A DNA stretch of 64,000 nucleotides from Firmicutes bacterium CAG:345 (GTDB lineage: Bacteria > Bacillota_I > Bacilli_A > RFN20 > CAG-288), in the NCBI GenBank assembly GCA_000433315.1, contig FR893362.1:3941-67940 (forward strand). The letters are read 5' to 3'. The translations under genes and the position numbers were made by a program. Position 1 is the stretch's first letter; each line of letters starts with the position of its first letter. Positions 32,985-41,212 of the stretch are shown piece by piece. The notes below the pieces were generated by a model. It was not told the origin of the DNA and did no database searches. It saw nothing but the letters and a program-made list of their open reading frames with translations.

Positions 32985-33662
32985 TTAATTTGCAGAATAA
33001 TCAATAACTATATTATCGTAAGAAAAGTTATAAACTGCTTTAGCTTCTAAAGATAAATTATCTCCAAAATCAATATAAGAAAAAGTAAATGAAGTAAAAT
33101 GATCATTTTCAACTTTCAATTCAAATGCAAAATCTTTAACATTAGTAAAAGAACTTTCATTAAAGAAATTAGATAAAGAATCCTGTTTAACGTTTCCTTT
33201 AAATCCATCTGAAGTTTCAGTAACATTTTCAAGATATTTATCTTCAAAAGTGAAACTTAAGAATTGCTCAGGAATAACATAACTTTTTTCAGTAGTAATT
33301 CCATAGTTATCAGTATAGTATTGTGTTTCACCAATTGTTACATAAGAAGTATTTTCAATATTGTACTTATTAGGATAAGCAATACTGAAGTTAGGATTTA
33401 ATCTACTGGTTGAAGTTGAAAGACTTGTCCTGATTGAATCACCTCTTTGAATTTTGAATTCATTAGAAGTTTCATAAACTATATCATCACCATCTATCAA
33501 TTTGTAATTGCTAGAGTAAGATGTGAAATTATCAGAAGTATTAATATAAATTTGTTCGAGTTTAGAATGTGGAACATTTGAAGAAGAGCTATTGTTATTA
33601 TTGCAGCTAACTAACGAAATTGCCACTAAAGGGAGAAGGGCAACAATTAAAGATTTTCTCAT
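32985..33662 (-). CDS. hypothetical lipoprotein (225 aa)
   Basis: Signal peptide plus lipobox LVSCN. It overlaps the stop of the giant gene (ATGA). Confidence 0.5.
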   Translation of the reverse strand: MRKSLIVALLPLVAISLVSCNNNNSSSSNVPHSKLEQIYINTSDNFTSYSSNYKLIDGDDIVYETSNEFKIQRGDSIRTSLSTSTSRLNPNFSIAYPNKYNIENTSYVTIGETQYYTDNYGITTEKSYVIPEQFLSFTFEDKYLENVTETSDGFKGNVKQDSLSNFFNESSFTNVKDFAFELKVENDHFTSFTFSYIDFGDNLSLEAKAVYNFSYDNIVIDYSAN

Positions 33663-39600: not shown

Positions 39601-41212
39601 TGTTACCAGCAGACATTGAGATTTCACCGGAAACATTATTATATAAGATTGCACCTATTGCGCCATGTTCAGCCGCAATACGGGCTTTATCTTCAAATGA
39701 ATTAGTACCACGACGAACAAGAGCTATTTTTCCTTTAACATCAATAGTAGAGTAATTAATATTTAAACCAGCACCTGGAACAGTAACATATTCTATTGTT
39801 TTTGAACCAGTTTGTGGAAGATCTAACATATCTGCAAAATTATAAGCAACACCTGTAGAATTATTAGATTCAATATAATAGAAAACATAGCCTTCATCGG
39901 AAACGATATAATTGGATTTTACACCACTAATAGATGCTACAGATAAAGCACCTTCATAAGTAGATGGAGATCCAACAGTACCTGCATCAGGAGTTGTAAC
40001 TTTATTAGTATTGCCGCCTGCAGTATTAAAACCCGCTGAATAAGAGTTACTTGCAGCAACAACCAATGAAATTCCAGCTTTTTCAATAGAATCATAAACT
40101 TTATTTAAATAGTCTTCATCAGTTGGACGTGTAAAACCGCAACTAGTACCTAAAGACATATTAATAGCATCAACACCAAGCAAAACAGAATCTTCAAGTC
40201 CAGCTAAAATATCATCAGTATTAGCACCTTCTTTAAAGTCTGAGAAAACTTTCATCAAAACTAATTGCGCATTTGTTGCAACACCGGTAATAGTATCATC
40301 TTTACCAGCAATAATACCACCAACGTGGGTACCATGTTCAGAAGAAAGAGGATCGACAACAGGATCATGATCAGCATAGTCATATGCAAATGGAATTTTA
40401 CCATTAATATATACATCAGAAGCTTTTAATCCTGGAGTAAGTTGTGCAGCTACACTTTCATCAATAACTTTTTCAATATCACTTCTTTTAAATAATTGTG
40501 TATCTTCTGCAGGAATATTTTGGAAAACTGAGTGATGAGTATCAAAACCAGAGTCCAAAATAGCAACTACAGTATTAGATCCATCAAATGGAACATCAGA
40601 TGAATTGAAAATACCTGTATCATAAACATCTACAACATTTGTTGTAACATCTTGTTTATTACCGGATACTGTTTGAGGTAAAGCATAAGCTTCACTGACA
40701 GAAACATCGTAAACATTTTTAGTCTTTTCGATATTTGTTACTGTACCATAAGTAGTTTCAACACCAAAGCCATTCAATAAAGTAGTATATTGATGAGTGA
40801 CTCCTTCAATCAAATGTTGATCTTGAAGTCTTTTTATTAAAGACTTTTGTTCAGAAATTAAAGAATTAGAATATTTAATGCCCTCTTCTGAACTCGCAAA
40901 GTCTGTCAAAGAATCATATTCATCTTTTTTACTGTTTTCATAAAGATCTGACAACGATTCTTTTTCCATAGTAATAATAAGATGAACTTTATCTTCACTT
41001 TGCAAACCACTAATGGTTGAAACATAATTAGAATTAAAATACTTTTCATTCTCTGTCAAAGAAGCAATTAAATCTAATTGTTCTGCATTAAGATTTTGTT
41101 GACCATCACCAGTATCTTTATTTCCATTTGAAGAAACAATACCAGCGCAACTAGACAAAAAGCCTAATGAAACTACACCAAAAGCGGTTAACAATTGTTT
41201 AAATTTTCTCAT
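33659..41212 (-). CDS. giant surface protein (2517 aa): lipoprotein-type signal, subtilisin-like S8 serine protease with an inserted PA domain, Ig-like region, long BspA-type leucine-rich repeat array, and a C-terminal hydrophobic anchor
   Basis: Catalytic-triad motifs VVAILDSGFD (Asp), HGTHVGGIIAG (His) and GTSMASP (Ser). A PA-like insert (KGKIALVRRGTNSFEDKARIAAEHGAIGAILYNN). About 30 repeats of the ..AF..CTSL..V.. type. The C-terminal transmembrane segment VAVAVTASIVALVSAAGVALIV is followed by TKKKGGAAL. No LPXTG motif. Confidence 0.8.
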   Translation of the reverse strand: MRKFKQLLTAFGVVSLGFLSSCAGIVSSNGNKDTGDGQQNLNAEQLDLIASLTENEKYFNSNYVSTISGLQSEDKVHLIITMEKESLSDLYENSKKDEYDSLTDFASSEEGIKYSNSLISEQKSLIKRLQDQHLIEGVTHQYTTLLNGFGVETTYGTVTNIEKTKNVYDVSVSEAYALPQTVSGNKQDVTTNVVDVYDTGIFNSSDVPFDGSNTVVAILDSGFDTHHSVFQNIPAEDTQLFKRSDIEKVIDESVAAQLTPGLKASDVYINGKIPFAYDYADHDPVVDPLSSEHGTHVGGIIAGKDDTITGVATNAQLVLMKVFSDFKEGANTDDILAGLEDSVLLGVDAINMSLGTSCGFTRPTDEDYLNKVYDSIEKAGISLVVAASNSYSAGFNTAGGNTNKVTTPDAGTVGSPSTYEGALSVASISGVKSNYIVSDEGYVFYYIESNNSTGVAYNFADMLDLPQTGSKTIEYVTVPGAGLNINYSTIDVKGKIALVRRGTNSFEDKARIAAEHGAIGAILYNNVSGEISMSAGNNLAIPFCSISQDDGEVLAKKSSGSLTFSREQQAGPFMSNFSSWGPTPDLKLKPEITAHGGNILSAIPGNKYNTLSGTSMASPNMCGAIVLIRQYVKQKFPEFKPTEVNALSMQLLMSTATIALDQYGNPYSPRKQGAGLASLKEATTTQGYITVDGTDRSKLEIGDDPNETGVYKLKYNIVNMSSTDSLSYTISNETMTESVSTYDSRYVAEHANMLNPSQSVELLSDVGTLEGDVVTVPANSVVTIEQTLTLSAEEKRSIKELFPNGMYIEGFTCLKDNTEAKIDLNAPYLGFFGDWTKAPIFDKTFYEVESTAHNQAIDDEDKIKADYYATTPYGTYFSNYIIPLGSYVYDIPSGYDAIPASEEHAAISTSSTSINGITTIYAGLMRGGKEVITKITDDATGEVIYYHVNHDQIRAYNGYPSTDLLNILATEVGLKNNSTYTVSMEAKLDYGDGGVNTNLNNTFSFKFTADNEAPIIKNVKYESEYDRSLRDYRYYLTVEVYDNHYAMDIRPFILQAGSLVDLSSTPIPVYGTEKGTTSSVRFEITDYLPSLANGSGANGLALTNGIGIMVEDYAMNSNYYFVNLPGTDIDSKGSINFVNSEGLALQSISGKVGETIDLTQYINSSSENFKNLNEAEKQKYMSSLAWSSSNESVAIIKGGQVDCLSAGTSTITASFVTTDGYVARATLRLIVTRNSNKILKAATTLKDIQFTYFDTEFAFPRGGQTANIGTTGSSNYVSSYTGAISMYPGEKIYMHYEITPWNLQGYELTWSTSNPNVLSVDQDGHVVALKEGSATLTLRVSIDGVQSSILASKRIVVNSPFVVENGKLVAYKGIGDENGVVEIPERLNLTEISDYAFASYTTDMSIIVNEDDWDANKIPAGNEFITKVIIPYSVNTIGKYAFYNCSNLQEVEFKVNPNATPTSNQNITTINQYAFQKCTSLKKANIGTVSIINKAAFDGCVALEEADLSNIYALAENAFRNCTSLKTVDITTLRNAGTGAFENCTSLKSFTSGEYTKLSKNMFKGSGLEDVTIYTDRIPEGCFEDCTSLKKVTVENDLIFVGQYAFKNNTSLSSVTFKGGVEYFDNEAFADCLSLTTFTLPSSNITLEDDVFSGCTNLDKLVLASKTFIEKIGTSVVPNTVSSFEVATDNINYKTNISNNVLVSADGKTIYLVAPNSNITSFDFATEFPGLETISSGAFSAIKGLTSIDLSNVLTLKTIGNNAFEKVADLTSVKLPEGLLTIGKNAFKNTSISEIVLPTTLKEIGDNAFSGTSITDFVLPNGVKVGADVLAGTRLVSLTIGQDVTLGTDAFRNLTSLTKVSFVGSGNVVVGDNSFAGCTSLSSFNFKFLAGRVGNGAFSGDYSLTTIDLENVEEIGDNAFASISNSNMRVTLGNKLTSIGSQAFYGSRMNEITIPSNVSYVGDSAFENCARLRTVTNLSSILSSLPTSCFANCTSLTTVSLGEKVTSIGDSAFSGDSSLVTVNATNITNIGSEAFKNTTKLSSINLSKVETFGKGAFYAAKGLTSLSLSSAKTIGDFAFLAASAVKTIDMPNVNYIGKQAFSGLDITTVDIPSTISYIGETAFYNNVKLASFTNFGMITSEVNDYCLIDNGVLYVKMNNGKYALNCYPSSKTDVDFVMKDDATYIQMYAVSNVRNLTRVTLSNALVKIGIGAFSGSNNLNKVTFRSTNAPALEAMNVVDNQNELPVLSYDEQLTTTILNSSISYDTSSEIYKILTAYLNFNGDIKLGYNQFVGYVGTVSRLSVAVPSNYVASTYSSIPYIIYFDFDKVNTTEVGETLNRNSLNYIDTVNSLPENITLKDKDAILNGRTYYNALNQDLTKFGYSSADVTDLALKLEDAYNTYYDLKSEQVSKTYDYLVDDINNLGSFSISKLDEYLAILRNVNKIDQEDRQYLDTSKLDAFQAQFKAYTDALNSKIENSAAVNKIGNVAVAVTASIVALVSAAGVALIVTKKKGGAAL

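Follow-up and report, generated by a model that had tools for sequence, protein, structure and literature searches.

A giant subtilase with a leucine-rich repeat array, encoded beside an oligopeptide importer in uncultured gut bacteria

The 64,000-nucleotide stretch of Firmicutes bacterium CAG:345 DNA analyzed here (assembly GCA_000433315.1, contig FR893362.1; hereafter the window, with position 1 its first letter) encodes, on its minus strand at 33659..41212, a protein of 2517 amino acids (aa) and ~277 kDa that joins a subtilase to a long array of leucine-rich repeats (LRRs). Because its gene belongs to the same cluster as an oligopeptide importer (Opp) in most of the related gut genomes examined, the protein most likely feeds the cell by digesting proteins outside it. 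We think that it is probably a membrane-tethered cell-envelope proteinase (CEP) supplying oligopeptides to Opp, in the manner of the lactococcal PrtP/Opp pair.

An intact reading frame of fixed length

The open reading frame (ORF) starts with ATG and is uninterrupted. From the N- to the C-terminus, its product consists of a lipobox signal, an I9-like propeptide, an S8 domain with a PA insert, an Fn3-like region, two Big_2 domains, ~32 BspA-type LRRs, a helical bundle, and a transmembrane (TM) helix followed by KKKGG. The motif LSSC occupies aa 19-22, and DSGFD, HGTHVGG, GTSMASP and KKKGG lie at aa 220, 293, 613 and 2510, respectively. The parts map to the window as follows, with the evidence for each in parentheses; AF2 denotes AlphaFold models and pLDDT their predicted local distance difference test score.

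41147..41212, minus strand: lipoprotein signal peptide, aa 1-22, with lipobox L-S-S-C (Cys22) (sequence motif, conservation)
40685..40990, minus strand: putative I9-type subtilase propeptide, aa ~75-176 (weak Inhibitor_I9 match, homologues, AF2 topology)
39188..40582, minus strand: subtilase S8 catalytic domain, aa 211-675 (Pfam PF00082, triad D220/H293/S615, oxyanion Asn N389)
39551..39772, minus strand: PA domain inside S8, aa 481-554 (Pfam)
37823..39160, minus strand: Fn3-like β-sandwich region, aa ~685-1130 (fn3_5, PDB alignments, Foldseek, β-strand content of the model)
37133..37810, minus strand: two Big_2-type Ig-like domains, aa ~1135-1360 (Big_2 match at aa 1306-1338; W1186/S1188)
34493..37090, minus strand: BspA-type LRR_5 solenoid, aa ~1375-2240 (Pfam, PDB sequence matches, unit count, Foldseek)
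33767..34198, minus strand: helical bundle ("stalk"), aa 2339-2482 (AF2 helices with pLDDT ≥94)
33662..33754, minus strand: C-terminal TM helix, aa 2487-2509, and predicted cytoplasmic tail KKKGGAAL, aa 2510-2517 (sequence, AF2 model)

A sequence-only reading of the window had proposed this subtilisin-LRR fusion, adding that a frameshift or a collapse of repeats during assembly could make the frame chimeric. The fusion proved to be real. The 90%-identity cluster of the protein holds 1047 member sequences, and the ten full-length members that we compared, which come from different assemblies, are each exactly 2517 aa long with 2-9 substitutions relative to the window. The 120 best homologues share 40-46% identity with the protein at a query coverage of 96-100% and measure 2471-2542 aa (median 2494.5); more than 120 homologues have the same length and domain order, and full-length matches occur at 80 GTDB loci. 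A search for tandem and direct repeats found no long or near-identical DNA repeats in the gene. The LRR units leave only traces of at most 42 nt that are 60-80% identical, as old and diverged units would, and with such short traces both slipped-strand variation and assembly collapse can be rejected. The ten assemblies, the orthologues, the GTDB loci and the lack of long repeats rule out a chimera, be it through repeat collapse, a frameshift or the fusion of two genes, and we give an assembly or annotation artefact practically no credence.

The same reading had expected the number of repeats to vary across strains. LRR number is instead constant: all ten variants have 2517 aa, and this unvarying length, in the strains as in the family, points to a fixed-length architecture. 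We also rejected an alternative genetic code in which TGA encodes tryptophan. TGA terminates 6 of the 37 genes in the window (TAA ends 23 and TAG 8), which is consistent with genetic code 11, and the 2517-aa frame is open under table 11.

The protease head

The catalytic domain matches Peptidase_S8 (PF00082) with an E value of 4.6e-39 and 134.9 bits, against a cut-off of 21.8. The PA insert, located between the catalytic His and Ser, matches with E 1.3e-15 and 57.7 bits (cut-off 23.9). The triad motifs DSGFD, HGTHVGG and GTSMASP, on which the subtilisin assignment had been based, are all present, and D220, H293, N389 and S615 do not vary across alignments of 24 and of 34 family members. The S8/PA part is the best-conserved region of the protein, with a conservation of 0.75 for the protease versus 0.54 for the LRR region. 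Judged from these residues, and as one part of the overall explanation that we favor, the protein is probably catalytically competent.

Downstream of the catalytic domain, aa ~685-1130 form an Fn3-like region that matched fn3_5 in a scan of protein fragments (29.2 bits, cut-off 27.6). Its equivalents are the Fn3 domains of SpyCEP and C5a peptidase and, in lactocepin, the A domain. The proposed kinship with C5a-peptidase and lactocepin-type proteases holds over the N-terminal 1100 aa, by sequence as well as by Foldseek. The closest solved proteins by sequence, over aa ~203-877, are SpyCEP (7edd, 5xyr, 5xya, 6vjb), a "cell envelope proteinase A" (31mr) and ScpA/ScpB (3eif, 1xf1, 8bty), with E values of 4e-75 to 1e-60. 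Alignments to ScpA and SpyCEP extend to aa 866-877. An AlphaFold model of aa 1-1200, of moderate confidence (mean pLDDT 67), aligns in Foldseek with SpyCEP, ScpA and ScpB over ~1040 columns (E ~7e-44, identity ~21-23%). An alignment of that length with C5a peptidases and SpyCEP indicates that the entire protease-PA-Fn3 module is present; the 2517-aa protein is a member of S8 with the defining core of CEPs and C5a peptidases. The NCBIfam model NF040553, which describes the SGO_0316/SGO_0317 LPXTG-anchored serine peptidase, matches aa 93-849 only, with 295 bits, below its 1400-bit cut-off.

Between the signal peptide and the catalytic domain lies a region resembling an I9-type propeptide. In the window protein itself the Inhibitor_I9 match is weak (E 0.03-0.05, 15 bits, Pfam threshold 21.2). 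Among 21 homologous fragments, 19 matched Inhibitor_I9, with a best E of 6.2e-5, and any other family matched at most two. The AF2 secondary structure of aa 75-175 runs β-α-(α)-β-β-α-β. A disordered linker modeled at low confidence follows at aa 173-191 and is presumably the autoprocessing region.

Ig-like domains and the LRR array

Two Big_2-type domains separate the protease module from the repeats. One gives a Big_2 match at aa 1306-1338 (E 2.1e-5, above the gathering score), and the conserved W1186/S1188 motif suggests an earlier, first copy. Peptidase_S8, PA, Big_2 and LRR_5, the four families for which profile searches had been proposed, thus all score above their gathering thresholds.

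LRR_5 (PF13306) matches in eight stretches with E 4e-129 and 424.8 bits, far above the cut-off of 27.7, and the units, each of ~22-25 aa, follow the pattern xxAFxxCxxLxxIxLPxxVxxIG. We counted ~32 units in three blocks (aa 1396-1690, 1738-2133 and 2190-2225), with β-hairpin modules typical of BspA-type proteins sitting between the blocks. Sequence and structure comparisons of this part matched 4fs7, 4gt6, 4h09 and TpLRR, and the NCBIfam HupY/LrrG model matched it with E 1.6e-35. The earlier estimate of about 30 BspA-type repeats was close to the mark, and the array makes up about a third of the protein, not the half that had been claimed. LRR positions are conserved across the family, with the repeat number constant, and within the species the region differs by scattered substitutions only, its length again constant.

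Anchoring and the C-terminal region

Kyte-Doolittle hydropathy exceeds 1.6 in two segments only, aa 8-26 and aa 2490-2508. At the N-terminus, the lipobox L19-S-S-C22 follows a hydrophobic core at aa 8-18, which predicts lipid modification at Cys22, and this cysteine is kept in at least 90% of homologues. At the C-terminus, the hydrophobic helix and basic tail occur in essentially all of 24 aligned homologues, and no C-terminal LPXTG sorting signal is found in the 2517-aa protein or in these 24. LPQTG at aa 465, the sole LPXTG-like string, sits inside the protein and is not conserved, and we therefore rejected it as a sorting signal. Both termini are therefore as the sequence-only reading had described them, with a lipobox signal and a C-terminal helix ending in KKKGG. 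Its comparison with a Mollicutes-like arrangement in place of sortase anchoring also fits the host: GTDB places GCA_000433315.1 in Bacilli; RFN20; CAG-288; CAG-345 (PMC10868615 supplement), family CAG-288 is predicted to be peptidoglycan-deficient, and order RFN20 lacks srtA/B sortases (PMC10868615). CAG:345 is probably wall-less.

The putative I9-type propeptide lies between Cys22 and the catalytic domain. Its removal would be expected from the general behavior of subtilase propeptides and, given that position, the C-terminal helix would probably be the only tether once the protein has matured.

An AF2 model of aa 2131-2517 (pLDDT 84) contains the last LRRs, a small α/β region, the helical bundle, a linker and the TM helix. 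By its position, the bundle would correspond to the lactocepin H domain. Foldseek against the PDB found no solved counterpart of it, the model of aa 2131-2517 matching in the LRR part only (4gt6, 4h09, TpLRR). In one long stretch, the only matches to the C-terminal region are proteins of ~2000-2550 aa, which are the family, and short fragment-like ones. The first helical hairpin of the bundle (aa 2343-2381; ~34070-34186, minus strand) carries a ~35-aa motif present in 3-15 copies in other long proteins (~300-1850 aa) of the representative library, and for that reason it may be a shared stalk repeat.

A gene cluster with an oligopeptide importer

The protease gene comes directly after the str operon (rpsL-rpsG-fusA-tuf). 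The cluster runs protease, ORF225, ORF395, long OppA, oppB, oppC, oppD, oppF, all on the minus strand, and its first four members are consecutive lipoprotein genes. As a further part of the explanation that we favor, the protease gene is probably the first gene of a protein-utilization operon. Features of the locus outside the protein are given below (ABC, ATP-binding cassette).

41474..41490, minus strand: terminator-like hairpin and T-run after tuf, separating the str operon from the protease transcription unit
41268..41296, minus strand: promoter-like site TTTACT-17-TATACT 5' of the protease gene, a consensus match only
~41226-41230, minus strand: GGAGG ribosome-binding site 5' of the protease ATG
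32985..33662, minus strand: ORF225, a 225-aa lipoprotein identical to CDD22537.1, whose start overlaps the protease stop by 4 nt
31786..32973, minus strand: ORF395, a 395-aa lipoprotein carrying Flg_new (InlB B-repeat) domains and similar, in one region, to the N-terminal part of M26 IgA1 proteases
29186..31765, minus strand: long OppA-type lipoprotein of 859 aa with SBP_bac_5
24591..29143, minus strand: oppB, oppC, oppD and oppF, encoding the permease pair and the ATPase pair of an ABC importer for oligopeptides

ORF225 yielded no Pfam match at E up to 5 and no PDB sequence match. In the ORF395 family, Flg_new is present in all 11 members, and 7 of them also contain a region similar to the N-terminal, non-catalytic portion of M26 IgA1 proteases. 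Between oppA and oppB, a strong GC-rich hairpin of 11 bp is found at 29147-29180; it could be an intra-operon attenuator or an mRNA stabilizer giving an excess of OppA. An Rfam scan of the window returned one tRNA only, with nothing in or near the protease gene.

To place the cluster among its relatives, we scanned one genome per GTDB species and compared the gene context of 84 related loci. Relatives occur in 295 species genomes. The best 80 of these 295 match over most or the whole of the protein. They belong to uncultured bacteria from the gut of humans, ruminants, rabbits, chickens and other hosts, under the record labels Anaeroplasmataceae, Acholeplasmatales, Mollicutes, Bacilli, Clostridia or Christensenella. 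The Firmicutes bacterium CAG:345 genome itself was not returned by the scan of species genomes, possibly owing to fragmentation of the gene in that assembly.

In 67-74 of the 84 loci, the block ORF395-oppA-oppBCDF adjoins the protease gene and shares its strand. Two gene orders are found: the opp cluster followed by the protease (~52 loci), and protease-ORF225-ORF395-opp (~15 loci, the window's clade). Where Opp is missing, the contig is in most cases truncated. Of 75 loci, 54 have an ORF225 homologue as the next gene after the protease, and the ORF395 family stands directly before oppA.

Additional arrangements were seen in individual loci. ORF225 and ORF395 are fused as one protein of 560-590 aa in ~10 loci (L006, L007, L011, L015, L022, L036, L037, L049, L056 and L066), which argues that the two act together. 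Where opp comes first (L002, L003, L004 and similar loci), large ORFs of ~650-800 and 1350-1470 aa come after the protease-ORF225 pair, the largest of them with a faint or weak Big_3 match, and ORFs of ~770-800 aa directly after the protease gene start with lipoprotein-type signals. Given these extra ORFs, the locus may exceed the part seen in the window. Two contigs of one metagenome-assembled genome (CALCWU01, "uncultured Mollicutes bacterium"; L008 and L059) each carry a family member, representing two paralogues or a mixed bin.

A probable nutritional role and its alternatives

The conserved operon with two lipoproteins and Opp leads us to favor a nutritional role over adhesion. We propose that the preprotein is exported and lipid-modified at Cys22, and that the I9-type propeptide (aa ~75-176) aids folding before it is autocatalytically removed. 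The mature enzyme, starting from ~aa 190, would then be held by the C-terminal TM helix alone. The helical bundle, the ~32-repeat LRR solenoid, and the Big_2 and Fn3 domains would make up a long arm that keeps the S8/PA head off the membrane. The LRR surface would capture protein substrates or particles, and the head would cleave extracellular proteins of dietary, host or microbial origin to oligopeptides. These would be bound by the co-encoded long OppA lipoprotein and imported by OppBCDF, which would provide amino acids for a gut bacterium with a reduced genome and probably no cell wall. ORF225 and ORF395 would be accessory surface components of the same machine.

The domain composition, intact active site, conserved termini, fixed architecture and conserved gene linkage are established; the removal of the propeptide, the substrates, the role of the LRRs and the nutritional purpose are what we infer. 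For the LRR arm, the options are capture of substrates or particles, adhesion, or docking of the co-encoded lipoproteins. The joining of LRR_5 to another nutrient-capture domain, NEAT, is a precedent (PMC7136413). RF39 and RFN20 genomes are reported to lack several amino-acid pathways and have been modeled as reliant on oligopeptide ABC uptake (PMC7301438).

Several points weigh against a nutritional proteinase. All relatives found come from metagenome-derived assemblies, with no cultured source among them. The nearest solved relatives, ScpA, ScpB and SpyCEP, are highly specific virulence proteases and not nutritional ones, and BspA-type LRR proteins are best known as adhesins. The window protein's own I9 match is below threshold, and the N-terminal model is of moderate confidence (pLDDT 67). 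There is no PrtM/PrsA-type maturase beside the protease, ORF225 and ORF395 having no rotamase or PrsA Pfam match at E up to 5. No CodY-box-like site was found in 41213-41512, and the window total of such sites is below chance expectation. Three loci with full flanks, L012, L082 and L075, have no adjacent Opp genes. Finally, gene adjacency speaks of selection for co-inheritance and co-expression, not of a substrate-product relation.

Some of these points would suit a different role, in which the LRR arm binds a ligand on a host or microbial surface (extracellular matrix, mucin, immunoglobulin or another cell) and the head cuts a specific target for colonization or immune evasion, the Opp linkage being incidental or secondary. 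Targets of this kind are familiar: ScpA and ScpB cut C5a, SpyCEP cuts IL-8, and the mycoplasma MIB-MIP pair binds and cuts IgG. We regard such an adhesin-protease as unlikely, and it keeps what weight it has because the nearest solved relatives are streptococcal virulence proteases and BspA-type LRRs are classic adhesins. LRR_5 relatives of the array include adhesins (HupY/LrrG at E 1.6e-35, PcpA, TpLRR), 7 of 11 ORF395 homologues contain the region like the N-terminal part of IgA1-specific M26 proteases, and the carriers are host-associated bacteria with reduced genomes. However, linkage to the Opp operon is near-universal and survives rearrangement of the gene order, and the carriers inhabit hosts as different as ruminants, rabbit, chicken and human. 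The constant length and 40-46% identity are also unlike a fast-evolving host-specific factor, and intraspecies changes in the LRRs are scattered substitutions with no length variation. The sequence-only reading had paired an adhesion or recognition module with a protease. What stands of this is the fusion of an LRR array to a protease, whereas the operon context favors nutrition over adhesion.

The array could also serve the neighboring gene products. The LRR solenoid might mainly dock ORF225, ORF395 and the long OppA, holding them in one peptide-channeling complex. Four consecutive lipoprotein genes in one operon, the conserved protease-ORF225 and ORF395-oppA pairs, and the existence of ORF225-ORF395 fusion proteins are consistent with such a scaffold, as are the conserved LRR positions and constant repeat number, which would be expected of a fixed partner interface. 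The lower conservation of the LRR region (0.54) than of the protease (0.75) argues the other way, and judging from the sequences we find the scaffold improbable. It is compatible with the nutritional model. In a broader form, which we consider possible but unlikely, the cluster would be a self-contained "protein utilization locus", with a tethered subtilase and a 32-repeat LRR docking rail for ORF225, ORF395 and OppA performing capture, cleavage and hand-over in one complex. If true, wall-less or wall-reduced gut Firmicutes would have in this locus a monoderm counterpart to the Sus-like utilisomes of Bacteroidetes. It could help explain the amino-acid supply of the uncultured RFN20, RF39 and related lineages, and would hint at intact protein or peptides as a medium component.

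Opp systems of Firmicutes import signaling peptides, so the protease might instead make such peptides for re-import by Opp, or process other lipoproteins, with no part in general nutrition. Some S8 enzymes are dedicated maturases, and the protein has weak NCBIfam similarities to PatA and mycosin. Its CEP-like build, with a PA insert and Fn3, is unlike that of small dedicated maturases; the cluster showed no genes for precursor peptides or regulators, and the arm of a 277-kDa protein would be hard to justify. We consider a maturation protease very improbable.

Comparison with known systems

Returning to the nutritional proteinase, the closest functional parallel is lactococcal PrtP. Its parts are ordered prepro, protease with insert, A, B, H, W and anchor (PMC7783315, summarizing Siezen 1999), and in auxotrophic lactococci this CEP makes peptides that are passed to OppA and OppBC (PMC7783315). 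The 2517-aa protein shares a predicted prepro region, the S8 domain with a PA-type insert, the Fn3-like A domain, a helical pre-anchor domain and C-terminal attachment. It would likewise work with an OppA/OppBCDF importer, to which its gene is linked, in an amino-acid-auxotrophic host, auxotrophy being reported for the RF39/RFN20 lineages. Unlike PrtP, it has two Big_2 domains and ~32 BspA-type LRRs in place of the B domain. The W spacer and LPXTG are absent, and a TM helix with KKKGG stands in their place, a replacement that fits a cell without a wall or sortase. Its signal is of the lipoprotein type, and the adjacent genes encode two unrelated lipoproteins and no PrtM/PrsA-type maturase. Wall anchoring, a lactocepin-type B domain and an adjacent PrtM are thus the CEP features that it lacks. 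Lactococcal PrtP and opp are not known to be encoded together in one operon; in the present loci the protease and opp genes form one conserved operon.

ScpA, ScpB and SpyCEP (3eif, 1xf1, 8bty, 5xyr, 7edd, 6vjb) give the best sequence and structure matches and have the same S8 domain, PA insert and following Fn3 domains. The streptococcal enzymes differ in being sortase-anchored, narrow-specificity virulence factors with no LRR array and no link to Opp. The repeats resemble those of BspA-type proteins (Tannerella BspA, Treponema LrrA/TpLRR, PcpA, HupY/LrrG, and the structural-genomics proteins 4fs7, 4gt6 and 4h09) in combining LRR_5 with β-hairpin "terminator" modules, although the present array, of ~32 units, is much longer and constant in length. 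LRR-NEAT proteins such as IlsA likewise join LRR_5 to a nutrient-capture domain (PMC7136413). The searches made returned no characterized LRR_5 protein with a protease domain.

Two further systems combine anchored serine proteases with small co-encoded proteins or lipoproteins and do without sortase anchoring: dentilisin of Treponema denticola (the subtilase lipoprotein PrtP with PrcA and PrcB) and mycoplasma MIB-MIP. In both, binding is paired with the protease as separate proteins, whereas here the binding and cutting parts are fused. We detected no sequence relationship to these systems, ORF225 having no Pfam match at E up to 5.

Members of the family are already in sequence databases as "leucine-rich repeat protein" or "hypothetical protein", and full-text literature searches found no published description of it. 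Uncultured bacteria of the RFN20, RF39 and related lineages are common in the gut; their genomes are reduced and reportedly lack several amino-acid pathways. The tight linkage of so large a surface protease to an oligopeptide importer, seen in related loci from a large set of these species, would be a concrete, testable answer to how they acquire amino acids, and it suggests additions to culture media. The locus shows the CEP design adapted to a probably wall-less cell, with a TM helix for LPXTG and an LRR solenoid for the B domain. What it offers is a clean and widely conserved link of a giant surface protease to peptide uptake in abundant uncultured gut lineages, one that need not astonish a specialist.

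Other features of the window

EF-Tu, EF-G, Ffh, PGK, GAPDH, pullulanase, OppA, ORF395 and ORF225 encoded in the window are identical to CAG:345 entries within the consecutive accessions CDD22516-CDD22540, and from this run the 2517-aa protein is presumably CDD22538. The rest of the window is core chromosome, including glycolysis genes, ffh, ftsY, rnc, plsX and the str operon.

Two ORFs at 19808-24319 on the minus strand share a reading frame and are separated by only one TAA and 15 codons: 22922-24319 encodes a 465-aa Flg_new lipoprotein, and 19808-22876 a 1022-aa product that lacks a signal peptide. Similar sequences occur upstream of the protease gene in L008. The pair may represent two genes, or a single gene for a surface lipoprotein of ~1500 aa that a nonsense codon has interrupted. 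At 7764-10610 (minus strand) is a 948-aa pullulanase-type enzyme with PUD, CBM_48 and alpha-amylase domains and a lipobox signal, another large lipid-anchored hydrolase of this apparently wall-less organism. The sole Rfam match, a tRNA gene at 10784-10857 on the plus strand, lies opposite to the surrounding genes.

A second EF-G-like protein of 687 aa is encoded at 54489-56552 on the plus strand, ~10 kb from the canonical fusA, and could be an EF-G paralogue or a ribosomal-protection-type GTPase. Also on the plus strand, 57635-63467 encodes another ABC transporter of the oligopeptide/dipeptide type, distinct from the protease-linked Opp, with ATPases carrying oligo_HPY, a 535-aa SBP_bac_5 lipoprotein and two presumed permease genes.

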